IMG/VR virus record: IMGVR_UViG_3300045988_034764
Length of the DNA stretch: 26,494 bases
Direction: 5' to 3' (one strand)
Source of the DNA: a virus
Lineage: Duplodnaviria; Heunggongvirae; Uroviricota; Caudoviricetes
Made by a program: the position numbers and the translations under genes. The notes beneath the pieces are model-generated. The model was not told the origin of the DNA. It made no database searches and saw only the letters and a list, made by a program, of their open reading frames with translations. Positions 1,733-22,738 of this stretch are shown here, piece by piece. Position 1 is the stretch's first letter. Every line of letters starts with the position of its first letter.

Positions 1733-1764
1733 TTGCAGACACCAATATAATAGGGTACTATTCA
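1733..1764 (+). promoter_or_regulatory. sigma70-like promoter with embedded operator motif, driving the transporter/DpdA cassette
   Basis: TTGCAG (1733-1738), 17-bp spacer, TACTAT (1756-1761); internal TATAAT (1746-1751); core TATAATAGGGTACTATTCA is one copy of the recurrent 19-bp motif. Confidence 0.45.
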
Positions 1765-1788: not shown

Positions 1789-1947
1789 ATGAAATTAGCA
1801 AAAAGAATTACCGTAAATACTAATTTAAGTTCGAAAAACGGAGACAAACGTAAGTTCCGCCGTAAAATGCGCCAGATTGTTAAACTAGACTACATTTTTG
1901 AAGAAACGATTGCACTAGCCGCAAACGCTGCCCGTAACTGGGGGTGA
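1789..1947 (+). CDS. Small basic protein (52 aa), first gene of the modification cassette
   Basis: In-frame ATG with AGGAG SD 7 nt upstream; lysine/arginine-rich; stop 4 nt before next gene. Confidence 0.45.
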   Translation: MKLAKRITVNTNLSSKNGDKRKFRRKMRQIVKLDYIFEETIALAANAARNWG

Positions 1948-1951
1948 TAAG

Positions 1952-2416
1952 ATGATGTATGCAATTTACGTAGCGGCGATATGCGCCGCTAACTTTTCGG
2001 TAACTGTGTTTGGTCCGTGGGCGACACCGGTAAACGCCTTTCTACTTATTGGGCTTGATTTCGTAATAAGAGATAAGTTGCACGAGAGGATTGGTGTACA
2101 AAAAATATTCATACTGATACTAGTAACTGGCATTATAAGTTTCTCCATAAACCCGGCAACCGGCAAGATTGCTATGGCAAGCGTTGTTGCCTTCGCTTTT
2201 GCAGCCGCCATAGATGCCGTTGTCTACCAGGCACTGATCAATAAAAAGTGGTTGGTTAAGTCAAACGTAAGTAATACAGCGGCCTCGGCGGTGGACTCTT
2301 TTATTTTCCCACTAATAGCTTTCGGGGCCTTCATGCCGCTAGTCGTACTGGGCCAATTCGTGGCTAAGGTTTTTGGCGGAGCTTTATGGTCGTTCTTGCT
2401 GAGGAAAATTAAATGA
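1952..2416 (+). CDS. Polytopic membrane protein, YhhQ / COG1738-like (queuosine-precursor transporter family)
   Basis: 154 aa with about 4 hydrophobic helices; motifs recalled from memory as YhhQ-like (D-x-x-x-R, NVS-x-T...FIFPLIAF); GGGGGTGA SD; ATGA overlap with DpdA-like gene. Confidence 0.45.
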   Translation: MMYAIYVAAICAANFSVTVFGPWATPVNAFLLIGLDFVIRDKLHERIGVQKIFILILVTGIISFSINPATGKIAMASVVAFAFAAAIDAVVYQALINKKWLVKSNVSNTAASAVDSFIFPLIAFGAFMPLVVLGQFVAKVFGGALWSFLLRKIK

Positions 2417-3147
2417 CAGTGCATTACCACGGAGGCCCTATTTGGGGTGGGGATGAGCTTATAGAAGCATTGTACCGAGGTGGTGGTGCTCTGGTATCAT
2501 ACGCCCGCCCCGATCAAATACGAAAGATAGCCGCCACGAGATGTAAATTAGTGTTGGACAACGGAGCTTTTTCGACGTGGAAGAAAGCACCGGACAACAT
2601 AGACTGGAGCGCCCACTGGGCAGGATATTATGATTTTGTCGGAGAGTGGTTCAGTCGTATTGAGTGGTTCATAATACCGGACGTTATAGAGGGCACGGAG
2701 GAAGAGAACGACGCATTAATAGAAACTGTCCCCGATTGGTTAAGGTCTAAGGCGGTCCCGGTGTGGCACAGCGATGAAAGTATAAGAAGACTGGTAAAAC
2801 TGTGCCGTGGGTTCAATCGGGTAGCGATAGGTTGCTGCGGACCGCACAGGGCCATACGGTCTAAGTCATGGGGGAAAAGAATGGACCAGGCATTTAATGC
2901 GGTTTATAGAAACAGGAAATTGGATGTAAAACTCCACGGCCTTAGAATGCTGGATGGGCGGGCCTTGAGCCGCTACCCTTTCGACAGCGCTGACAGCACA
3001 AACGTAGCTATAAATGTGCCGAAAACTAAGGCAAGACTACCTGACATAACGGACAAACTGCATCGAACTGCCATAATGAGGCATACCATAGAGATGGTTA
3101 AACCCCCTACAGTAGAGGAATGGCTACTTAAAACTAAGGCCCCATAA
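2413..3147 (+). CDS. dpdA: DpdA-like tRNA-guanine transglycosylase paralog (7-deazaguanine DNA transglycosylase candidate)
   Basis: 244 aa; TGT-like motifs LDNGAF (compare DSGGFQ) and FDSADST (compare FDCVxPT); no zinc-binding subdomain, as in short phage DpdA; coupled to the YhhQ-like gene. Confidence 0.5.
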   Translation: MTVHYHGGPIWGGDELIEALYRGGGALVSYARPDQIRKIAATRCKLVLDNGAFSTWKKAPDNIDWSAHWAGYYDFVGEWFSRIEWFIIPDVIEGTEEENDALIETVPDWLRSKAVPVWHSDESIRRLVKLCRGFNRVAIGCCGPHRAIRSKSWGKRMDQAFNAVYRNRKLDVKLHGLRMLDGRALSRYPFDSADSTNVAINVPKTKARLPDITDKLHRTAIMRHTIEMVKPPTVEEWLLKTKAP

Positions 3148-3159
3148 CGGGGCCTTTTT
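3136..3159. terminator. Intrinsic terminator at the end of the modification cassette (possibly bidirectional)
   Basis: AAGGCCCC-ATAAC-GGGGCCTT hairpin spanning the DpdA stop codon, followed by TTTTT; portal gene ends at 3162 on the other strand. Confidence 0.55.
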
Positions 3160-3161
3160 CG

Positions 3162-4631
3162 CTACTCCTGTTGCTGTGCCGACTGCGGAATCTCCCCCTC
3201 CACCTGAGTAACAGCACCTAACGGCAGTGGTGCATCCTCGATTGCGTTCTGAATGTCCTCGTCCGTCCAGTCAGTTACGCCAGCCTTACGCAATGCTGCA
3301 TAGTAAGCAGTGGCGGGCAGCAAACCGGCATTAATGTCTGCCATCCACTGCGCACGGTCATGGGCGGTCATCGGTTGCAAGAAGAACTCCATATTCAGCT
3401 TGAACTCAATCTCTGTGCCTTCACGCAGCCCTAGCATCGCAGCCACCCAGCGCAACGCATCGGTGTACGCCATGCTTACGTTCCGCGCGATTGTCGCCAT
3501 AACTGACGTATCCGCACCGCGTTGCAGTCTGGCCGATTCAGCGGTGATTTGCTGCGTCGGGGTGATAAGCTGCGCACCAATCTGGATAGCCTGATTCTCT
3601 TTATCCAGCATGTTCTGCTTAGCGAGGTTGTTCTCCCCCGCCTGAACCAGAAACGCATTGCCGCCGTAACCAATGTTGTGGCCTGAACGCGACCCCATAC
3701 GCACGCCGTGAGGGTTGGCTTCTTTCCACTGTTCCATGCTCATGTTCTCGCCCGGCGCAATGAACAAAGTAGGCTGGCCTACCACGAAGCTGGACTCTTC
3801 ATTGTCTGCGCTGTTACGGAAATGCCCGATATTAAGCTCAGCCAACGGCAGCAAAGGTGCATCGTCAATTGTTGCATCGTTGTTGCTCGCACCAATGAAC
3901 GTAAATGGGATTTTACCGCGCAACTGTTCGCCCAGTTCCGGGAATATTTCGATTACTTCGTCCTGAGCGCCGCCTTCGGCATCGAAGCGGTAAATGCGCT
4001 GGCGGTAGCGACCGTCAATCAGGTCAAGGACGCGGTATTGCTCGCCAAACTTGGTTTCGAACTCCGCACCCGGTTCTGAGTATTCCCATGCCTCACGCAG
4101 CACGACCATAGTCACACGGTTCACTGAACCTACGCGTGTCAGTCGCCAGTTGATGATGTTCTCTGCGGTATAGAATGCGATGACCGGGTTTAATAACCCT
4201 GCGTTCTGTTCGGCTGCCGTCGCGGCGGCGGTCTCTGGGGCATCAACCAGCAACCCGCCACGACCTACCGAGTCAATCTCCATCAGCGTATCCTGCGCGT
4301 GCTGCCACAGCCCGACACCGGAACCGTCAGCATTACGTAGCAGGTACTCCATCTCAGGCGGAATAATCTGTTCGGGGTCTTTGCGCATGACGCTACCGAC
4401 CATCCCCGCCAGGGTACGTTTAGTGAAGTTGTAGCAGATAGCGCCGTTCTCGTATTCTTCCTGGCGCTGCGCTGCGTAGGTTGGGTCTGGCTCGTTCTTC
4501 CCGACGTTGCGAAGATAGCGGATAAGGTCGCCTTCCAGCGCGTGTCGCACCTTCTGCCATTTATCGAAGTGATGCAGCCATTCCCGGTGTTTTGTCTTAA
4601 CACCCTGATTCTGACCGTTCATAGTTAACAT
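3162..4631 (-). CDS. Portal protein
   Basis: 489 aa ORF between terminase large subunit and head morphogenesis gene; AAGAGGA SD; size and position typical of a portal. Confidence 0.6.
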   Translation of the reverse strand: MLTMNGQNQGVKTKHREWLHHFDKWQKVRHALEGDLIRYLRNVGKNEPDPTYAAQRQEEYENGAICYNFTKRTLAGMVGSVMRKDPEQIIPPEMEYLLRNADGSGVGLWQHAQDTLMEIDSVGRGGLLVDAPETAAATAAEQNAGLLNPVIAFYTAENIINWRLTRVGSVNRVTMVVLREAWEYSEPGAEFETKFGEQYRVLDLIDGRYRQRIYRFDAEGGAQDEVIEIFPELGEQLRGKIPFTFIGASNNDATIDDAPLLPLAELNIGHFRNSADNEESSFVVGQPTLFIAPGENMSMEQWKEANPHGVRMGSRSGHNIGYGGNAFLVQAGENNLAKQNMLDKENQAIQIGAQLITPTQQITAESARLQRGADTSVMATIARNVSMAYTDALRWVAAMLGLREGTEIEFKLNMEFFLQPMTAHDRAQWMADINAGLLPATAYYAALRKAGVTDWTDEDIQNAIEDAPLPLGAVTQVEGEIPQSAQQQE

Positions 4632-4906: not shown

Positions 4907-6157
4907 TCACAGAGAAAAAGTAACGGGGATGTTGATTACTGGTTTAACCACCGGCATCTCGTAAACTACAGGATAGCCGAGAGCATCCGCCATATGGTCG
5001 ATGATGCCGTCTTTATCTGGCTCTCCGTTATCGTCATATGCCTGCTGCTCCAGCGTCTTCGCTATCTCGGGGCATAAGTGGTCGTTAACCCACAGCTTAC
5101 CTTTTTCCAGCGCGGTATTCACGGCTAAAACACGGTCTTTAACCGGGGGGTTGGCGGATTTAGCGCGAACATCGAACCCGGCCTGCTGGAGTAACGCGAT
5201 ATCAGAGATTGACGCTGAGTTGGTTTTGCGGTTCTTGCCGCTGGCGTCGGGGTAAACGACGATGCGGTGGCCTTGCGATTTCCACTTCTCGGTAATGACG
5301 CGCACAGTATCCGGCGTATCGAACAGACCTTTCAGTTCTGCCACCGCGTGCCAGCCGTCTTTACGCTGCACATACACGGCGCTCGCGTTCTTCGTAACGT
5401 TGAAGTCCTGCCCGATGTACAGCGTGTCGCCCGGTTGAATAGTCTCTTTGCTGCGGTGCTTGCGACGGTCATACGCGTAATACACGCTGCCGGATGTCAG
5501 GTTAACGAACTCGCCGTTCAGATACGCGTTAATCAACTGTGCCGGGTAAGTCTCCGTCAGCGAGCTAATGTAATCCGGCGGCAGGAATCTCGCATTCTCA
5601 TGAGTTGATGCCTGCACCATTGAGTAACTCGGCGTCGGGTTCTCTTTGAACTTGGCGTAGACGAACTTGAACCCTTCCGGCGTCGTGGTGACGGAGATGT
5701 GGTTGGTTACGCCAGGAATAACCAGACGCATACGGGCTACGATTTTGTTCCACGCCAGCTCAGCTTTCTCGCGACTCAATACGTCGAGCTCATCCACGAC
5801 CGCGGCGGCGATTTTGAAGCCGACGATAGAGCCAGGGTTATCCATCGAACGGCAGATAACCGTACCGAGCACCGTCTTACCGCGAGTGACAACGACCTCT
5901 TTGTCGCCGGATTTAACCAGCACATCAAGGCCGAGCAGGTTAGCCGCTTCCTCGAATGTCGGGTAGAAGATGTCGCGGATGGCCGGGTACGTCGGCCCGA
6001 AGTAGCCCAGGCGCGCACCTGGGTGCTTGAGCATGAATGTAAGCAGGTCCAGACAGCCAACAAATGTCTTGCCGCTGCCGAATCCCCCGACATAGGCTTT
6101 GTATTTGTTATCGCAATTCAGGAACAGTGCCTGCGGGGCGGATAGCTGAATACTCAT
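4907..6157 (-). CDS. terL: Terminase large subunit
   Basis: 416 aa; Walker A GGFGSGKT, Walker B VVDELD; ATGA overlap with upstream small-subunit gene. Confidence 0.85.
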   Translation of the reverse strand: MSIQLSAPQALFLNCDNKYKAYVGGFGSGKTFVGCLDLLTFMLKHPGARLGYFGPTYPAIRDIFYPTFEEAANLLGLDVLVKSGDKEVVVTRGKTVLGTVICRSMDNPGSIVGFKIAAAVVDELDVLSREKAELAWNKIVARMRLVIPGVTNHISVTTTPEGFKFVYAKFKENPTPSYSMVQASTHENARFLPPDYISSLTETYPAQLINAYLNGEFVNLTSGSVYYAYDRRKHRSKETIQPGDTLYIGQDFNVTKNASAVYVQRKDGWHAVAELKGLFDTPDTVRVITEKWKSQGHRIVVYPDASGKNRKTNSASISDIALLQQAGFDVRAKSANPPVKDRVLAVNTALEKGKLWVNDHLCPEIAKTLEQQAYDDNGEPDKDGIIDHMADALGYPVVYEMPVVKPVINIPVTFSL

Positions 6158-6699
6158 TCCTCTACCTCGCCCATGTTCGTTGTTACGATTTTACCCACAG
6201 GCTCCGCGACACTGAAAATAATCTCAGTCGGTGCTGTTTCTTCTGTTGATTCAACTGGTTTCTCTTTGCTGAGGCCCAGCTTCGCCGCAGCAAACGTAGC
6301 AGAGATACCTGCGGCCCCGGTCTCGGTGAAGTACGCCTCTTCCAGCGCCTGTGCGGTCTCCCAGGCTTCTGCAAATGCGGGAATCTCACGCAGCCACAGC
6401 TTAATAATCGGGATAGTTACGCCGATGTGTAAGGCGAAGCGGGCCAGTGACGGGGGTTTATCCTGAATAAGTGGACGTTCGTCGCCCTTAGACGTAGGCA
6501 CAAGCTCCCATGACGTGCGGTCGAAGAACTCGATTAGCGCGTCGCAATAGTCCGGGTCCCACAACGCGGCGGAATTACGGGATGATTGATAAAGGCTCTG
6601 TTTACCGCGTGGTCGTTTACGGCGACGGTTTGCGCTAACAGCTTCTTCATGTGCAGCTTGCACCACCTCTGGCGATGGCTGCTTAAGTTTCAGCTTCAT
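6154..6699 (-). CDS. Terminase small subunit (putative)
   Basis: Start moved to in-frame ATG with AAGGGGA SD (181 aa); immediately upstream of and overlapping terL; basic N-terminus. Confidence 0.5.
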   Translation of the reverse strand: MKLKLKQPSPEVVQAAHEEAVSANRRRKRPRGKQSLYQSSRNSAALWDPDYCDALIEFFDRTSWELVPTSKGDERPLIQDKPPSLARFALHIGVTIPIIKLWLREIPAFAEAWETAQALEEAYFTETGAAGISATFAAAKLGLSKEKPVESTEETAPTEIIFSVAEPVGKIVTTNMGEVEE

Positions 6700-6716
6700 A
6701 GAATCCCCTTGCATAT

Positions 6717-6757
6717 GCGTCTGACCATCAGAGCGCATCAGACGCGCCCTACGCGTC
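6717..6757 (-). repeat. Nested palindromes and direct repeats in the leader of the terminase operon
   Basis: GCGTCTGA...TCAGACGC and GACGCG-ccctа-CGCGTC inverted repeats plus CATCAGA direct repeat, about 20-60 nt upstream of the small terminase start. Confidence 0.35.
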
Positions 6758-6797
6758 TAAAGGGATTATATAAGGGGATTGGGCGGGATGTACAGAA

Positions 6798-8574: not shown

Positions 8575-8603
8575 AATATAATTGGTGTAAGAGTAATAGT
8601 CAA
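8575..8603 (-). promoter_or_regulatory. sigma70-like promoter for the small-gene array
   Basis: On minus strand TTGACT (8598-8603), 17-bp spacer, TATATT (8575-8580); about 30 nt upstream of the first ORF. Confidence 0.4.
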
Positions 8604-8624
8604 CTAGTCATAGCAGAAAATAGA

Positions 8625-8721: not shown

Positions 8722-9210
8722 TCAACCTTTCACCGTGCGCCCAATAGCCTCTGCCTCTTGCCACGGCTTACCGTCGAACAACGCCAGACGACCCGCAGTA
8801 CGGCGACGCAGACCGAGTAGTGGTTTGCCGTTCTGGTTGATGAACAACGCCAGCTTAGCACGCAGCGTCGCAATATCACCGGAACGCAGGGCCTTGCCAG
8901 TGCCGGTAGTAACTGCAATCACGCCAGCACCAGCGTTATAGACCAGGTCGCATACTGCATCGAACTGCGCCTGTGTCAAGGAGTGGTGCGCTGCAGCGTC
9001 AACCGCAGCTACGGCTTTAGCCATATCACGATTCAGTAATAGGAGGCCTTGCCCGGGAGTGATGGTCTTACCTGGGGTTACGTCCGGTCCGTAATGACCG
9101 TAACCAATAGTCAGGTACTTCTCGTTCGGGGTAGCGCGGTACGCGGTTCTACGGAATCCCTCGAACGCGGCGGTGAAATGCAACCCATTATCTGAAATGT
9201 TTCGAGACAC
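8722..9210 (-). CDS. Endolysin, GH24 phage lysozyme family
   Basis: Motif pattern FEGFRRTAYRATPNEKYLTIGYGH typical of T4/P22-type lysozymes; start moved to GTG with GGAGGA SD 8 nt upstream (track start is TTG). Confidence 0.8.
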   Translation of the reverse strand: MSRNISDNGLHFTAAFEGFRRTAYRATPNEKYLTIGYGHYGPDVTPGKTITPGQGLLLLNRDMAKAVAAVDAAAHHSLTQAQFDAVCDLVYNAGAGVIAVTTGTGKALRSGDIATLRAKLALFINQNGKPLLGLRRRTAGRLALFDGKPWQEAEAIGRTVKG

Positions 9211-9460
9211 GCTTATGTCCTCCGTATGACAGCCACGCCTGACGAATCTGACGCAGCGCAACTAATGTGATTAATGTCTCAGGCAGCGTAGGCGACATGC
9301 TGCCCTGTAGCAGGTGGATACATCCGGCGGCGCAGACGATAGCGGTCAGGATATAGAGCACCCGACCAAATAGTCCGTCATCCACGCTGGGATGATATAC
9401 ATTAAACAGCGATGTGCCCCCTATTGCCAGCATACCGCCGAACCAGAATAACTCATTCAT
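9188..9460 (-). CDS. Lysis-associated membrane protein (holin/antiholin-like, 2 TM)
   Basis: Start moved to ATG with GAGGAGG SD; two hydrophobic helices; overlaps endolysin start by 23 nt. Confidence 0.5.
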   Translation of the reverse strand: MNELFWFGGMLAIGGTSLFNVYHPSVDDGLFGRVLYILTAIVCAAGCIHLLQGSMSPTLPETLITLVALRQIRQAWLSYGGHKRVSKHFR

Positions 9461-9761
9461 CTGGGCCTCCTCGACGTGGGATGTATTCTCCGGCGACGAT
9501 ACCGGAGAGACGGGAATAGATAGGCATCCAGAGAACCGCGATGATGAAGCCCAGGCCCGCGATTTCACGGTCGCCCGTGATACCGAACCATTGAGCCGCG
9601 AGAGGTGCGCCAAATACGGCGCAGGTGAAGCCAGTTGCAATAAAGCAGAAGCCGTCGATAGGGCCAGAAATAACGGACTTATGTTGTCGTAGTCCGATGA
9701 CCCCTCCGGCGAGTGCGGCAGCGAGAAGCCAGCCTGTCACTGTTTCAGTAAATTTATCCAA
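9453..9761 (-). CDS. Holin-like membrane protein (about 3 TM)
   Basis: 102 aa; TTG start with GGAGGA SD 6 nt upstream; hydrophobic helices and charged C-terminus; immediately upstream of the lysis genes. Confidence 0.5.
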   Translation of the reverse strand: MDKFTETVTGWLLAAALAGGVIGLRQHKSVISGPIDGFCFIATGFTCAVFGAPLAAQWFGITGDREIAGLGFIIAVLWMPIYSRLSGIVAGEYIPRRGGPDE

Positions 9762-9820
9762 GATGAATCCTCCAGGTGCGTATTAAGTATGCAGTAACTG
9801 GAGGATACCACGGGTAGGAA

Positions 9821-10261
9821 TTATCCTAATAGTTGTTTGGTAATAATCTTGCCGCCGGTGTTAGTGTCAAACTTCGATGCAACGGCTACACCGCCATGTG
9901 CTGAATATTCACATTCCATGGCCGCCAGTGCGTAGGGAGAACCGGAACCAACGGCGGCAAAGCTATCGGCAATCGGAATAACCGAACTAAGTGCGCAATC
10001 CCACGATTTATAAAACGAGACTTTATACACCTTTTCTGTGTCTTTCACGAATACCAGAGCTTCGAAATCAAAATCATAGTGCTTTGCCTGAAGAATATCA
10101 GGGCAATCGATAAGCATAGCCCCTACCCCCGCATCGCCCGCTACCCCGATAACAGCAAAATCATTCTCATATATCTTTGTGTCTGTGTTGTAACAGTTAC
10201 TTCCGCACACAACACGTGTATCGCAGGCCATTGTCTTTCCATCAAACGCGATTGTAGTCAT
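9821..10261 (-). CDS. HslV-like / proteasome beta-type Ntn-hydrolase peptidase
   Basis: 146 aa; N-terminal MTTIAF (Thr nucleophile after Met removal) and VGSGSPYALAAM resembling HslV IGSGGPYAQAAA; GGAGG SD. Confidence 0.6.
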   Translation of the reverse strand: MTTIAFDGKTMACDTRVVCGSNCYNTDTKIYENDFAVIGVAGDAGVGAMLIDCPDILQAKHYDFDFEALVFVKDTEKVYKVSFYKSWDCALSSVIPIADSFAAVGSGSPYALAAMECEYSAHGGVAVASKFDTNTGGKIITKQLLG

Positions 10262-11374: not shown

Positions 11375-11483
11375 CAACCCCCATTGTTATCGCTTTAGTG
11401 TCGCCGTCGCACACAGAAGTGCTACCCATTATTTCGTAAGCATCTACCAGTTCGCCTAAGGTCCAGCTACCGTACCAACCCAT
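11364..11483 (-). CDS. Hypothetical small protein (39 aa), not in ORF track
   Basis: ATG with AGGAGA SD about 30 nt downstream of a promoter copy; coordinates approximate. Confidence 0.3.
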   Translation of the reverse strand: MGWYGSWTLGELVDAYEIMGSTSVCDGDTKAITMGVDDE

Positions 11484-11509: not shown

Positions 11510-11545
11510 AATGAATAGTAGCCTATTCTATTTTAGTGTGCAAGT
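11510..11545 (-). promoter_or_regulatory. sigma70-like promoter with operator motif (copy A)
   Basis: On minus strand TTGCAC, 17-bp spacer, TACTAT; core TGAATAGTAGCCTATTCTA; positions approximate (+/- 3 nt). Confidence 0.4.
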
Positions 11546-12756: not shown

Positions 12757-12972
12757 CACTTCGCCCCTTTGAATTTAAAATTGTTGCCGATGAGTTTTAT
12801 CCCGTCCTCCCGGACCCATAAATCGAAACACCATTCTGGATGCGCGAGATAGCATAACCCAGGAACTTAATTCGAAACTCGTTTAATTATTGCGTAATGT
12901 CCGCCGCGTTTCGTTTTCACCAACTGACCCTTCTTAAACATAACCCTCACTCCTCTGTCTCGTTTCGATAAG

Positions 12973-13006
12973 TGAATAGTATCCTATTATATTGGGGTGT
13001 GCAAGA
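12973..13006 (-). promoter_or_regulatory. sigma70-like promoter with operator motif (copy B)
   Basis: On minus strand TTGCAC (12999-13004), 17-bp spacer, TACTAT (12976-12981); core TGAATAGTATCCTATTATA at 12973-12991. Confidence 0.45.
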
Positions 13007-13362
13007 GAATAGTTACGTTGCCGTTGTGATTCTTTCGTTTCTTAAAAGAGTACGCAACGCAGTGGGTGGGCGTTAGCCCACCCCAGCGGAGTGAAGTACT
13101 CTCTACCTTGTTTACGGCAATTATAGAAACTTTTAATTATCAGTGACTTGGGTATTTAGGCGGGATTAACAATAGACTTTGGCCCTTCCGAAAGCGCCAG
13201 CGGAACTACACTCAAGTGCCTAATGGCACGCGTTGCGTTCCCTGCCGCTCCGCGGTCGCTTGCGATATCTCACAAGCTCAGTGAAGCTTAGCATATTTTT
13301 AAGTAAAAGTCAATACCAGTAGCATCTTTTGTATCTTAGTAACTTTGTGTGGCGTTTTGGTT

Positions 13363-13391
13363 GCTTTTACATTCCCGCTATCCTATACTCA
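13363..13391 (+). promoter_or_regulatory. sigma70-like promoter for the plus-strand replication module
   Basis: TTGCTT, 17-bp spacer, TATACT, about 30 nt upstream of the ATG at 13421. Confidence 0.4.
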
Positions 13392-13420
13392 GCTTCACCA
13401 AACAAACAGGAGATATAAAA

Positions 13421-13603
13421 ATGCAGCATTACATGACCCAGAATGAAGTAGCAGAACGTATCGGGGTGACCCGTCAGACAATTAATAACTGGTTGCGCAG
13501 TGGTAAATTCCCGGATTGCTGTATTAAGGTTATGGGCCGCCGTTTACCGGGTACATTTGACCGTAATAAAGTTGAAGCGTGGATTAAGGAGAACGTGAAA
13601 TGA
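13421..13603 (+). CDS. AlpA/excisionase-type helix-turn-helix DNA-binding protein
   Basis: Start moved to ATG with AGGAG SD (track start lies inside the promoter); MTQNEVAERIGVTRQTINNWLRSGKFP matches the AlpA-family HTH pattern. Confidence 0.7.
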   Translation: MQHYMTQNEVAERIGVTRQTINNWLRSGKFPDCCIKVMGRRLPGTFDRNKVEAWIKENVK

Positions 13604-13890
13604 AAGGTGTAATATTCCATGATAAAGAGAACGACAATTCTTATATGGTCTATTTAGTGCAAGGCAAGTACGCGTTGTGTTTTAACGTTTCTTGTAAGCT
13701 GGACTCTTATTCGCCGTTTTGCGTTACAGAAGAATTGCAGTTGATTAGTCTCCGAAGACTCAGCACAATGTCGGCCTCCATTGATGTCTCTGACCACTTA
13801 TCGTACGTTTATCAGTATTTCGGCGATGAGATTGTCGTAGATTATTATCGTAAGTACGCACATTTGATGGAATGCCTGGCCAATAGATAA
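13600..13890 (+). CDS. Hypothetical protein (96 aa)
   Basis: ATGA overlap with upstream gene; no recognisable motif. Confidence 0.55.
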   Translation: MKGVIFHDKENDNSYMVYLVQGKYALCFNVSCKLDSYSPFCVTEELQLISLRRLSTMSASIDVSDHLSYVYQYFGDEIVVDYYRKYAHLMECLANR

Positions 13891-16216: not shown

Positions 16217-16250
16217 GTAAAAAAAAAAAGGGGGGGGGGCGTTAAGCCCC
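16217..16250 (-). terminator. Homopolymer-containing terminator between convergent genes
   Basis: A11 (16219-16229) then G10 (16230-16239); on the minus strand GGGGC-loop-GCCCC followed by C-run and T11, directly after the XRE gene stop. Confidence 0.4.
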
Positions 16251-16457
16251 TTCACCGAACGCCAGCCACTTGGCGTCTACTTCCAGCACTTCCGCCAGTT
16301 TAAACAGCGTCGCCGGGCGGACGTCCTGAGTTACGCCGAGCGCAAGCTGGTTAATCGCACCCTGGGAAACGCCGGCCAGAACAGCCAGACGGCGCTGTGA
16401 GATGCCGAGTTCTTTACGGCGTTGTTCTACACGGATGCCTAGTTCAGATGGTTGCAT
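16242..16457 (-). CDS. XRE-family (Cro/CI-type) helix-turn-helix transcriptional regulator
   Basis: 71 aa; ELGISQRRLAVLAGVSQGAINQLALG is a classic XRE HTH; AAGGAG SD; antisense to surrounding genes. Confidence 0.75.
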   Translation of the reverse strand: MQPSELGIRVEQRRKELGISQRRLAVLAGVSQGAINQLALGVTQDVRPATLFKLAEVLEVDAKWLAFGEGA

Positions 16458-16484: not shown

Positions 16485-16552
16485 GTGAATAGTACCATAT
16501 TAATTATTTTAGAAAAGCCCATTGACATCGTGAATAGTTAGCTATTATAGTT
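16485..16552. promoter_or_regulatory. Divergent promoter/operator switch region (copies D and E of the motif)
   Basis: Plus strand: TTGACA (16522-16527) + 17-18 bp + TTATAG/TATAGT with TGAATAGTTAGCTATTATA in the spacer; minus strand: TACTAT -10 (16489-16494) facing the XRE gene. Confidence 0.5.
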
Positions 16553-16582
16553 AGCCCATACCAAACGAGAGGAGAGAAACAA

Positions 16583-17083
16583 ATGTTAGAGAAATTCTTA
16601 GCATTACTGGAACGTTTCGTAGTTGCTCATGAACTGATTGCTGCGAACAGCGCGAAACAAGTTGTTCAGGTTTCCGCGCCGCTGGAAGTAGAGACGGTAG
16701 CGTATGCCAAAGAAGCGGTAGCCGAGTGCGCTGAAGAAGAAACAAAAGAAATCCCGGTTGAAGGTGAAGACATCGTCGACACTAAACCGGCAGAAGAAGA
16801 GAAGCCGAAACGCAAGCCGCGGAAAGCTAAAGTAGAGGAACCAACACCGGAGCCGGAAGAAGAGAAGGAAGAAGTTGATTACCAGTCTCTGCGTGACCAG
16901 ATTCAGGCTATCGACGATGCGATTAACGAAGGTCCGAGCGATGCCGCGTGCGATGACTCCGATGAACTGCTGGAAGAGTTCACCGGTAAGAAAATGAAGA
17001 TTGCCGCGATTAAAGACGAAGACCTGGCTGAATACCTGAAACGCCTGACGGCAATCAAGAACAAGTATTTCGAAGAAGAATAA
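16583..17083 (+). CDS. Highly acidic protein (hypothetical; possible DNA mimic)
   Basis: 166 aa very rich in E/D with one basic patch KPKRKPRKAK; first gene after a strong promoter; GAGAGGAGAG SD. Confidence 0.55.
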   Translation: MLEKFLALLERFVVAHELIAANSAKQVVQVSAPLEVETVAYAKEAVAECAEEETKEIPVEGEDIVDTKPAEEEKPKRKPRKAKVEEPTPEPEEEKEEVDYQSLRDQIQAIDDAINEGPSDAACDDSDELLEEFTGKKMKIAAIKDEDLAEYLKRLTAIKNKYFEEE

Positions 17084-17731: not shown

Positions 17732-18969
17732 TTTTAAAGGAACGCGGCGGCAATAATGATGTGCACGCCTTACTGTCACCGTCGGGTGCTAAAAAGTGGC
17801 TGACGTGCAGTGCATCGCTAGCCTGTGAAAAAGATATTCCTAACACGTCCGGTAAAGCAGCCGTATTAGGCACCGCCATGCACACCATAGCCGAGATGCA
17901 CCTTAACCAGTACATCAAAGGCACGGCGCTGCCGTTAGAGCGTGAAGTCGGCGCTTACGTGCTGGATGAGGGTAAAGGTCAGATTAAGGCGTTAATCAGC
18001 CCGATGAAGGGCGCTGTACTGATTACGGCTGACATGATTGAGCAGGTGCGCAAGTACACCGACTATTGCAAACCGATTATCGACGTAGCGACTTACGCCA
18101 AACTTGAGATGCGCGTCAATCTTACTGAGGTATTGCATCCTGGCTATGAAGGCGTTGAGACGTTCGGAACCGCTGACCTCGTTGCCGTGCAGGAACTGGC
18201 GAACACAGACGAGCACATGCTCATTATCGGCGACCTGAAAACAGGACGGCATCGTGTTGAAGCGAAAGAAAACAAACAGCTTATGCTTTACGCTCTCGGT
18301 GTCTATCGCCGACTCAAGAGACGCTATAACATCACCGTGGTTCGTCTGGTCATCTTCCAGCCGTATGCTGGCGGTGCGTCGGAGTGGGACATCTCGGTTG
18401 AAGGTCTGGAACTGTTCGCTAAGTTCGCACAGAAACGTGCACTTTTAGCGCTAGACGCGTATTTCCGCGGCAAGAAGAACCTGAAAGCGTCGGACTTCAG
18501 GCCGTCGGTCGATGGTTGCCAGTGGTGCCGGTTCTCTGAACAATGCGCCGCGCGTACAAAGACGGTTAATTCTGTACTGGCGGAAGAACTGGAGGACGAC
18601 TTTGCGCTGGAACTGACACCGGAGCAACTTGTAGCCGAATATGAGAAGTTGCCGTTGTTGCGCCAGCACATCGATAAGGTTGAGAAAGCGATGGCAGCTG
18701 CGTTACATTCCGGTAAGAAAGTGCCAGGGTACAAGTTGGTTGAAGGTCGTCCTGGTAACCGTGCGTGGAAAGATACCGATGCGGTATTCGAGAAGTACGG
18801 TACTATGCTGCAAAAGGTAGTTCTCATGACGCCGACCGAAGCGGTTAAAGTTGTGCCGGAAGAAGAACTGAAAGACTTCATTACCCGTAAGCCCGGAGCA
18901 CCGTGCGTCGCAACGGCAGACGACAAACGTCCTGAGTGGAATCAGGCAACCGAGGAGGATTTAGAATGA
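17728..18969 (+). CDS. Cas4-like / DUF2800-type PD-(D/E)XK exonuclease
   Basis: Start moved to ATG overlapping the upstream stop; motifs DLVAV...IGDLKTG and C-terminal CQWCRFSEQC cysteine cluster. Confidence 0.7.
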   Translation: MILKERGGNNDVHALLSPSGAKKWLTCSASLACEKDIPNTSGKAAVLGTAMHTIAEMHLNQYIKGTALPLEREVGAYVLDEGKGQIKALISPMKGAVLITADMIEQVRKYTDYCKPIIDVATYAKLEMRVNLTEVLHPGYEGVETFGTADLVAVQELANTDEHMLIIGDLKTGRHRVEAKENKQLMLYALGVYRRLKRRYNITVVRLVIFQPYAGGASEWDISVEGLELFAKFAQKRALLALDAYFRGKKNLKASDFRPSVDGCQWCRFSEQCAARTKTVNSVLAEELEDDFALELTPEQLVAEYEKLPLLRQHIDKVEKAMAAALHSGKKVPGYKLVEGRPGNRAWKDTDAVFEKYGTMLQKVVLMTPTEAVKVVPEEELKDFITRKPGAPCVATADDKRPEWNQATEEDLE

Positions 18970-19124
18970 TTCGTAAAATCGTGTATTGGGCTTTATTATC
19001 ACCATTGGTAGTTATATCTGCTTTTACTTCATCTATTGCTTGGATAGATTGTAAGTTTAGAGGTAGTCAACCCATAGAACGCTATGTTCATTGGTGTGAG
19101 AAAGTTTCTAAAATTAAGCGTTGA
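18966..19124 (+). CDS. Small membrane protein (52 aa)
   Basis: ATGA overlap with upstream stop; one hydrophobic helix. Confidence 0.4.
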   Translation: MIRKIVYWALLSPLVVISAFTSSIAWIDCKFRGSQPIERYVHWCEKVSKIKR

Positions 19125-19150
19125 CACCTGAATAGTTAGCTATTATATTT
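19121..19150 (+). promoter_or_regulatory. sigma70-like promoter with operator motif (copy F) upstream of the SSB-like gene
   Basis: TTGACA (19121-19126), 17-bp spacer, TATATT (19144-19149); spacer holds TGAATAGTTAGCTATTATA, identical to 16531-16549. Confidence 0.5.
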
Positions 19151-19202
19151 CTAATCACTGGCCGGGCAGTTCCCGGAGTAAACTTAAAAGCGAGAAATCA
19201 AG

Positions 19203-22445: not shown

Positions 22446-22738
22446 CTAAAGAGGGTCGCGTGCAGAAATACGCGAAAGAGAGGTTCGAGGCCCTGGGGGG
22501 CCTCGTTCGCAAGCTCTCCTACGAAGGACGTTCCGGTGCTCCCGACCTGCTGGTAATTCTCCCCGACGGCATCATCTGGTTCGTCGAGGTTAAGAAAGAC
22601 GAAAACACGAAGCCCGACCCGCACCAGCTACGCGAGCACGAGCGGATGCGTAAACGCGGCGCGAATGTTTTTGTCGTTGGTTCGTTTAAACAGGTTGACA
22701 CCCTAATAGCGGACTATTATAGTAAACACATACCCTAA
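22442..22738 (+). CDS. VRR-NUC domain nuclease
   Basis: Start moved to internal ATG (98 aa); PD-(D/E)XK-type motif PDLLVI...FVEVK typical of VRR-NUC. Confidence 0.7.
   Translation: MTKEGRVQKYAKERFEALGGLVRKLSYEGRSGAPDLLVILPDGIIWFVEVKKDENTKPDPHQLREHERMRKRGANVFVVGSFKQVDTLIADYYSKHIP

Follow-up and report, generated by a model that had tools for sequence, protein, structure and literature searches.

Which protein reads a short inverted repeat that sits on promoter after promoter of a virulent phage, and what would its binding do there? The question is raised by positions 12973-13006 of IMG/VR virus record IMGVR_UViG_3300045988_034764 (Caudoviricetes), a stretch of 26,494 nucleotides that was analysed as a whole and is called here the window. 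A preliminary description, made from the sequence alone, had noticed at this place one copy of a recurrent 19-bp word and had suggested a single phage-encoded regulator behind it. We find the word eight times in the window, each time on a sigma70-like core promoter, and follow it through related genomes. It is very probably a protein-bound operator of some kind. Judging from the comparison of genomes and of protein folds, we also consider it rather probable that the whole statement holds, namely that the word is a dyad operator on sigma70 promoters, bound by the phage's own Cro-like XRE repressor.

Escherichia phages of the genus Kagunavirus, subfamily Guernseyvirinae, such as fPoEco01, K1G and K1H, share about 90% identity with the window, whose phage is a virulent E. 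coli phage. Neither a CI-like gene nor an integrase is found in the window or in its complete relatives.

A recurrent dyad in eight copies

The motif is TGAATAGT-N3-CTATTATA, with the core AATAG-N4-CTATT. The pattern TGAATAGTNNNCTATTATA, searched with at most three mismatches, has eight matches in the window, which begin at 1746, 8592, 11512, 12973, 16486, 16531, 19129 and 22703 and are called O1 to O8 in this order. Dinucleotide-preserving shuffles give 0.16 matches on average, and none of 100 reaches eight; the recurrence that the preliminary description reported is thus real. With a weight matrix built from the eight copies, the copies score 24.5-37.7 bits and the next-best site in the 26.5 kb scores 10.1 bits. 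The same word is recovered without bias when all inverted repeats of 5-mers with gaps of 0-8 are counted. AATAG-N4-CTATT tops this count with six perfect copies in the window, which are six of the eight motif copies; other 5-mer palindromes have at most three copies each, the runners-up being terminator stems. The N4 spacing is constant across all copies, and in the extended form TAATAG-N4-CTATTA the half-sites are 10 bp apart from centre to centre, about one helical turn.

All six copies named in the preliminary description are present, among them the reverse-oriented one at 1746-1764 (minus), which the pattern search recovers, and, as stated there, all 19 nt agree between the copies at 16531 and 19129. 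Two copies had been missed, at 8592-8610 (minus) and 22703-22721. The copy placed at about 11510-11528 lies in fact at 11512-11530 and has one mismatch, and that at 16486-16504 exists but is degenerate, with three mismatches and the right half ATATT.

Three registers on predicted sigma70 promoters

Every one of the eight copies overlaps a sigma70-like core promoter, as had been claimed for the first six, and a gene start follows 27-60 nt downstream. The promoters are predicted, and the operator centres given here are computed with an assumed transcription start 7 nt past the -10 hexamer. The copies fall into three layouts.

In the first layout (16531, 19129 and 22703) TTGACA is followed by 2-3 nt and the motif, a -10 TATAnT overlaps the 3′ end of the motif, and the operator centre is at about -18.5. 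O6 (TGAATAGTTAGCTATTATA; 16531-16549, plus) occupies the spacer and the -10 of the plus-strand promoter TTGACA 16522-16527 / 18 bp / TATAGT 16546-16551, ahead of a gene that starts at 16583. O7 (again TGAATAGTTAGCTATTATA; 19129-19147, plus) has the same place in the plus-strand promoter TTGACA 19121-19126 / 17 bp / TATATT 19144-19149, predicted to drive the genes for an Enc34-type single-stranded DNA (ssDNA)-binding protein (19203) and DNA polymerase (19891). O8 (CTAATAGCGGACTATTATA; 22703-22721, plus) has three mismatches but a perfect TAATAG-N4-CTATTA. This copy falls inside the 3′ end of the VRR-NUC gene and occupies the spacer and the -10 of the plus-strand promoter TTGACA 22695-22700 / 17 bp / TATAGT 22718-22723, which is predicted to drive the genes from 22758 onward, including a helicase; its orthologue in the Jerseyvirus wksl3 is at 18530. 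Sigma70 matches at 11 of 12 positions occur exactly three times in the window, and they are these three. The class with TTGACA and the motif in the spacer had been described before, with two members rather than three and with a uniform spacer of 17 bp, from which 16531 departs with 18 bp.

In the second layout (1746, 11512 and 12973) the promoter TTGCAC/G-17-TACTAT is on the strand opposite to the motif, the operator covers the -10 and its centre is at about -12.5. O4 (TGAATAGTATCCTATTATA; 12973-12991, plus), the copy at the originally flagged coordinates, lies over the minus-strand promoter TTGCAC 13004-12999 / 17 bp / TACTAT 12981-12976 at the head of the leftward early operon, whose first gene starts at 12941; its centre is at about -12.5. 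O3 (TGAATAGTAGCCTATTCTA; 11512-11530, plus) lies over the minus-strand promoter TTGCAC 11543-11538 / 17 bp / TACTAT 11520-11515, with a gene start at 11483 and a terminator upstream of the promoter (11816-11795). O1 (TGAATAGTACCCTATTATA; 1746-1764, minus) lies over the plus-strand promoter TTGCAG 1733-1738 / 17 bp / TACTAT 1756-1761, predicted to drive a cassette at 1789-3147 that holds a 52-aa open reading frame, a YhhQ-like and a DpdA-like gene. O5 (TGAATAGTACCATATTAAT; 16486-16504, plus) is a variant of this layout, also centred at about -12.5 and covering the -10. The promoter is here the XRE gene's own and has no -35; its minus-strand extended -10 TGgTACTAT (16497-16489) arises from the degenerate right half-site. 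TTGCAC/G-17-TACTAT is therefore present in three copies and not in four, as had been stated.

The third layout has one member, the degenerate O2 (TGACTAGTTGACTATTACT, three mismatches; 8592-8610, minus). It contains the -35 of the minus-strand promoter TTGACT 8603-8598 / 17 bp / TATATT 8580-8575, so that its centre is at about -33.5. The copy is just downstream of a terminator, and the promoter is predicted to drive the small nin-like genes from 8541 and then the terminase genes.

Hence, the operator is centred at about -18.5 in three copies, about -12.5 in four and about -33.5 in one, in both orientations relative to transcription. One dyad in three registers and both orientations fits the site of an occluding repressor, and not a sequence recognized by a polymerase or a promoter element.

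Distribution among related phages

When IMG/VR was searched with aligned Guernseyvirinae XRE proteins, 74 loci of at most 20 kb were obtained, each centred on an XRE homologue, in which AATAG-N4-CTATT was counted with at most one mismatch. The 33 Kagunavirus-type loci (XRE at least 95% identical to that of the window) and the 12 Jerseyvirus-type loci (about 51%) carry 2.7-5.7 palindromes per 10 kb in every locus. The six Cornellvirus-type loci (GRNsp27, VSiP and four from IMG/VR; about 41%) have 0-1 palindrome per locus. The remaining loci, with lower XRE identity, have none; they include lambdoid phages with the homologue at the cro position, such as CobraSix. The XRE gene is present in every motif-bearing locus, which is so by construction because the loci were found through XRE.

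Complete genomes give the same picture. There are 11 copies in fPoEco01, and wksl3 has 10 of the form TAATAG-N4-CTATTA (1.8 expected) at orthologous places. In both phages the copies head early and middle operons and oppositely oriented accessory (moron) cassettes within the structural region, and in neither complete genome does a copy head the late structural operons on their own strand.

Among 31 distinct Kagunavirus sequences of the XRE region the half-sites are invariant, and variation is found at the central bases and in the 2-4 nt that separate TTGACA from the operator. The degenerate form of O5 is likewise invariant across these sequences, and that of O2 is kept in other Kagunavirus and Jerseyvirus genomes; O5, too, is degenerate in both genera. 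At the orthologous O7 promoter the half-sites are kept across genera, as TGAATAG...CTATTATA in Kagunavirus and TTAATAG...CTATTATA in Jerseyvirus. The Cornellvirus orthologue keeps TTGACA and the -10 and has TGAATTATTAAACTATTAT instead, with no dyad; the dyad is thus not needed for promoter function as such.

Palindrome enumeration and all intergenic regions of GRNsp27 and VSiP yield no convincing replacement operator for Cornellvirus. Only isolated features are seen, one GCAACACG dyad and GTGAATAGTTAT twice in tandem. The tandem pair, at ~13680-13720 of the VSiP locus (L007), equals the left half of the Kagunavirus operator and sits in a long G-rich non-coding region of a phage that has no full dyad.

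At 16546-16582 of the window and in its orthologues the promoter-operator-leader unit ends in ...TATAGTTAGCCCATACCAAACGAGAGGAG, after which at least five different downstream genes follow in Kagunavirus; the leader with this end is present in some Jerseyviruses too. The units thus coincide with mosaic recombination joints.

A Cro-like protein encoded beside two of the dyads

The XRE protein has 71 aa (16242-16457, minus) and matches Pfam HTH_3 with E 2.3e-12. Its best sequence match among solved structures is 434 Cro, a protein of the same length (E 5.4e-7, phmmer, residues 6-68), followed by the 434 repressor and P22 C2. The single-sequence AlphaFold2 model has five helices with a mean predicted local distance difference test score (pLDDT) of 84, and its top Foldseek match is again 434 Cro (2cro; template-modelling scores 0.73/0.79, 40% identity). 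XRE thus has an HTH_3 domain and, by model and fold comparison, the five-helix Cro/CI fold.

Dimers of 434 Cro, the 434 repressor and P22 C2 bind dyads of 14-18 bp and leave the central stretch uncontacted. The motif of the window is an inverted repeat within 14-18 bp with half-sites about one helical turn apart. The copies at 16486 and 16531 are both within the 125-bp divergent region upstream of the XRE gene, the layout of an autoregulated gene, and this arrangement is conserved in Kagunavirus and Jerseyvirus. The divergent gene encodes a 166-aa protein to which domain search assigns no function.

The two genera also differ in a way that bears on the binder. The outermost base of the half-site is G in 35 of 102 half-sites in Kagunavirus and in 3 of 44 in Jerseyvirus (Fisher p = 4e-4), and the recognition helix of XRE is genus-specific, SQGAINQ in the former and SQSLITH in the latter. 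The parallel is a weak covariation that would favour XRE.

Other explanations

A host transcription factor or some other small phage protein is an unlikely binder of the operator. Many small early open reading frames have no assigned function, and ATAG...CTAT resembles a box of the OxyR/LysR type. However, the OxyR box is ATAG-N7-CTAT (T-N11-A architecture), and the spacing here is N4. A host factor is also hard to reconcile with Cornellvirus, which infects the same Salmonella hosts and has no motif. As for another phage protein, within about 10 kb on each side of XRE the sole other gene that Kagunavirus and Jerseyvirus share and Cornellvirus lacks encodes a 63-aa protein with no DNA-binding signature. 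In this search only two small proteins show the lineage pattern of the motif, this one, free of DNA-binding features, and a 60-aa excisionase/MerR-like protein of the HTH_17 family (13421-13603).

That this HTH_17 protein binds the operator instead of XRE is quite unlikely in our view. Several points do weigh against XRE. Its recognition helix differs at four of seven positions between Kagunavirus and Jerseyvirus, although both have AATAG as operator core. Identity between these two genera is 78-82% for HTH_17 and about 50% for XRE. HTH_17 is not found in Cornellvirus, which lacks the motif, and its distribution matches that of the motif except in two loci, L033 and L026, where the search for it covered the locus DNA, a part of each whole contig. 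In Cornellvirus the XRE helix is TQSAISH, a mixture of those of Kagunavirus and Jerseyvirus, yet the palindrome is absent. Literature searches found no studies of operators, repressors, transcription starts or binding in Guernseyvirinae. Finally, in the sole published time course for Kagunavirus, a coarse one of phage K1B4, gene _004 ('specific DNA binding') belongs to the middle class and _008 ('helix-turn-helix') is one of four early genes (PMC12645636). By gene order _004 would be XRE and _008 HTH_17, so that the presumed XRE equivalent peaks with the middle class and the presumed HTH_17 equivalent among the four earliest-peaking genes. This order agrees with a repressor whose level rises after the earliest genes, and is not a test of it.

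The conservation of HTH_17 and its absence from Cornellvirus would, taken alone, fit as well as XRE does. The two exceptional loci, however, have an XRE of 97% identity and keep every orthologous operator, while HTH_17 is replaced at its syntenic position and absent from the part of each contig that was searched. At 12559-13144 of L033 and 3624-4209 of L026 (equivalent to 13421-13890 of the window) a zinc-ribbon protein of 47 aa (CxxC...CxxC) and another protein of 149 aa stand in place of HTH_17 and its 96-aa neighbour, and the N-terminus of the helicase-primase differs too. HTH_17 would thus be dispensable for operator retention, and together with its neighbour it looks like an exchangeable replication-initiation module. 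The helix-turn-helix of HTH_17, unlike that of XRE, is almost unchanged between Kagunavirus and Jerseyvirus. No operator copy is found at its proximal promoter candidate (TTGCTT 13361-13366 / 17 bp / TATACT 13384-13389), and among solved structures the protein lacks a significant relative. Winged helices of the small excisionase type usually bind direct repeats as monomers, a mode unlike that expected for a dyad spaced by 10 bp. We suggest that the comparative data favour XRE over the AlpA-like HTH_17.

The word might also need no dedicated regulator and be the shared sequence of strong sigma70 promoters, spread by duplication and recombination. Its symmetry would then come from -10-like hexamers on both strands (TATAAT, TACTAT / TATTAT), and indeed the motif holds several TAnnnT hexamers and every copy coincides with promoter-like sequence. 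The promoter-plus-leader units are moreover mosaic junctions common to the genera, for which common descent is plausible. We nevertheless regard this explanation as improbable. The three registers leave different parts of the dyad outside the hexamers in each class, yet these parts are invariant: TGAATAG in the spacer of the TTGACA class, TATAATAG in that of the TTGCAC class. Free variation is seen in the central 4 bp and in the bases adjacent to the -35, and none in the half-sites. Orthologous Cornellvirus promoters, in turn, have kept TTGACA and the -10 and lost the dyad.

The motif as such has been published. PHIRE found an element in seven copies, with the consensus tgAATAGTa-ccTATTat-T, in the Kagunavirus fBC-Eco01, which its authors label as promoters of a phage RNA polymerase (PMC9825357), and the element TAATAGTACCCTATTATGTT in Salmonella phage SGP-C (PMC8790156). 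Both elements are the motif of the window. The two reports list it only, and leave its symmetry, promoter register, binder and lineage distribution unanalysed; as far as we found, the operator/Cro reading and the lineage limits are new. The chance that the copies are promoters for a phage-encoded RNA polymerase is negligible: no such gene is annotated in the complete fPoEco01, wksl3 and GRNsp27 or occurs among the open reading frames of the window, all accounted for by synteny, and the copies, which coincide with sigma70 hexamers, stand in either orientation to the downstream gene and in three registers. Since none of the Guernseyvirinae genomes examined has an RNA polymerase, the attribution made for fBC-Eco01 is wrong.

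Further candidates were tried and rejected. A loading site for an antiterminator of the Q or P. aeruginosa AlpA type would leave most copies aside, as only three of the eight are in the spacer at one register; HTH_17 has only 60 aa, and P. aeruginosa AlpA, with its DNA-contact residues at positions 128-142 (PMC9371919), is much larger and unrelated. Against a MerR-type spacer operator stand spacers of the optimal 17-18 bp, not 19-20 bp, and an HTH_17 protein with neither a dimerisation nor an effector domain; an OxyR-like host box is rejected by the N4 spacing in every copy. An RNA element is not supported either: there is no Rfam match in the window, the copies are upstream of the predicted starts, and the arms are 5-6 AT-rich bp. 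For a lambdoid immunity switch (CI, Cro and a tripartite OR) no CI-like gene or integrase was found in the window or in complete relatives.

Suggested mechanism

We suggest that the operator is the dyad (T/G)AATAG-N4-CTATTA, which would be bound by a dimer of the 71-aa XRE with the central 4 bp not read. About ten copies per genome, eight of them in the window, would lie on the -35, the spacer or the -10 of promoters for the host sigma70. The operator-bearing promoters would head the early and middle operons together with accessory 'moron' cassettes, which are independently transcribed add-on genes.

Step 1: Upon entry of the phage DNA the host RNA polymerase would fire the operator-bearing promoters. 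XRE would be made from a weak promoter with an extended -10 and no -35, and would for this reason accumulate gradually.

Step 2: XRE would then occlude the core promoters and turn them down, in the manner of the Cro proteins of lambda, 434 and P22 at the operator regions OR and OL. It would act with no CI partner, because the phage is virulent.

Step 3: The conserved degenerate copies, O5 at the promoter of XRE itself and O2 at the promoter of the nin-like and packaging genes, would be shut off last.

A broader proposal is possible, although we hold it to be doubtful: in Kagunavirus and Jerseyvirus one 71-aa repressor and a set of graded operators might time the whole early and middle programme as a CI-less 'Cro-only clock'. 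Perfect operators would then stand at the replication and early promoters, and conserved degenerate ones at the repressor's own promoter and at the one leading to the packaging genes. The promoter-operator-leader unit of ~45 bp would be a portable plug, by which new cassettes are put under the same clock, and would mark the recombination joints between modules. Cassettes wired in this way would be, in the window, that for DNA modification (DpdA-YhhQ) and, in relatives, those for an amidase and for superinfection immunity.

Gene map and other features of the window

The gene map is based on synteny and domain searches; colinearity with fPoEco01 begins at position 6158 and runs onward. The minus strand carries the MuF-like head morphogenesis gene (645-1745), the portal gene (3162-4631), the large and small terminase genes (4907-6157 and 6154-6738), the small nin-like genes up to 8541, the lysis genes (8722-9831), the small early genes up to 12941 and the XRE gene (16242-16457). 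On the plus strand the genes for HTH_17, the 96-aa protein and helicase-primase extend from 13421 onward, and the replication operon, with nuclease, Enc34-type ssDNA-binding protein, DNA polymerase, VRR-NUC and helicase, from 16583 onward.

The accessory cassette at 1789-3147 (plus) is an insertion that separates the MuF gene from the portal gene and runs on the other strand, with a terminator at 3136-3156. Following its 52-aa open reading frame it encodes a YhhQ/Vut_1-like transporter (1952-2416, plus), of the queuosine-precursor transporter family, and a DpdA-type protein of 244 aa (2413-3147, plus), of the phage queuine tRNA-ribosyltransferase family (phrog_887, E 2.9e-84). The label 'modification cassette', given in the preliminary description, was correct, and the gene content suggests 7-deazaguanine DNA modification from salvaged precursors. 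The same site holds an HNH endonuclease in fPoEco01 and an amidase in wksl3.

Two sigma70-like matches have no operator. One is upstream of the small terminase gene (TGTACA-18-TATAAT, 6765-6794, minus) and the other upstream of the lysis genes (TTGACA-16-GATTAT, 9843-9870, minus); both are candidate promoters that would escape the proposed repressor. The first gene downstream of O4 (12867-12941, minus) has an in-frame stop after 24 codons, and the frame past it is still homologous to the 62-aa fPoEco01 protein PE1_051 (…LIGNNFKFKGAK). The stop may be a nonsense mutation, a sign of a pseudogene or a sequencing error.

On the other side of O4 a non-coding stretch of ~430 bp (12992-13420) extends to the HTH_17 gene. 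Its conservation with fPoEco01 is ~88%. GC-rich hairpins occur in it, such as GGGTGGGC-GTTA-GCCCACCC near 13066-13085, and it has no Rfam match; it could be a replication origin or an unclassified RNA.

The 5′ leader of the ssDNA-binding protein gene has a hairpin at 19157-19182, CACTGGCCGGGCAG(n)TTCCCGGAGTAAAC, which most of the listed sequences of Kagunavirus, Jerseyvirus and Cornellvirus keep. Of the four from Cornellvirus, two retain CACTGGCCGGGCAG and diverge downstream of it, and the promoter spacer upstream has also diverged in Cornellvirus. The hairpin may be a translational or stability operator for the Enc34-type protein. In the DNA polymerase gene fPoEco01 has an insertion of ~890 bp relative to the window (L001 15452-16346; window ~21231), the protein being 1032 aa long there and 732 aa here; this may be an intein or a homing-endonuclease insertion.

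Implications

Kagunavirus and Jerseyvirus are among the phages most often isolated for therapy against E. coli and Salmonella and for food biocontrol, and the phage collection holds more than 450 records of the two genera. The operator-repressor pair, if true, would explain how early genes are shut down in a virulent siphovirus of lambdoid descent that has no CI/Cro switch, and the operator reading would correct the published annotation as phage RNA polymerase promoters. For phage engineering the operators would also offer repressible sigma70 promoters as a compact and orthogonal set, and accessory cassettes such as the 7-deazaguanine (DpdA-YhhQ) module would prove to be wired into the phage's own regulon. 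The circuit is conventional in kind, and to a specialist it would be useful rather than surprising.

Comparison with known systems

The closest parallel is with Cro of 434 and P22. XRE is a single-domain protein of 71 aa and five helices whose best match in both sequence and fold is 434 Cro. As in those phages, the operators are dyads of 14-18 bp with the central 4 bp apparently unread, they sit on the -35 or -10 of predicted sigma70 promoters, and two of them are in the divergent region beside the regulator gene. The temperate CobraSix carries an XRE homologue at the cro position beside a CI-like gene. However, unlike lambdoid 434 and P22, the phage of the window is virulent and has neither a CI repressor nor an integrase or a lysogeny module. 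At XRE there are two operators, 45 bp apart, in place of a tripartite OR, and about ten are dispersed over the genome instead of being gathered in two clusters. The half-site is (T/G)AATAG and not the ACAA of 434, and it is also unlike that of P22; at the positions that contact bases in the 434 recognition helix, XRE has QGAINQ and 434 has QQSIQL.

A second likeness is with the C proteins of restriction-modification systems. These small XRE-fold dimers (C.AhdI, C.BclI, C.Esp1396I) are among the top fold matches of XRE and bind palindromic boxes over their own promoter, as we propose for XRE. C proteins act as timers after entry into a new cell. Each controls a single operon from two boxes side by side, as activator and as repressor, whereas the sites here are many, single and dispersed, all in what would be repressing positions.

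Finally, a short word scattered in many copies across a phage genome recalls the stoperators of mycobacteriophage L5/D29 gp71, about 30 copies of a short repressor-binding word in short intergenic gaps. Stoperators are asymmetric 13-mers of a temperate phage, which lie inside transcription units and block elongation depending on their orientation. The copies in the window, in contrast, are dyads that sit on the core promoters themselves.

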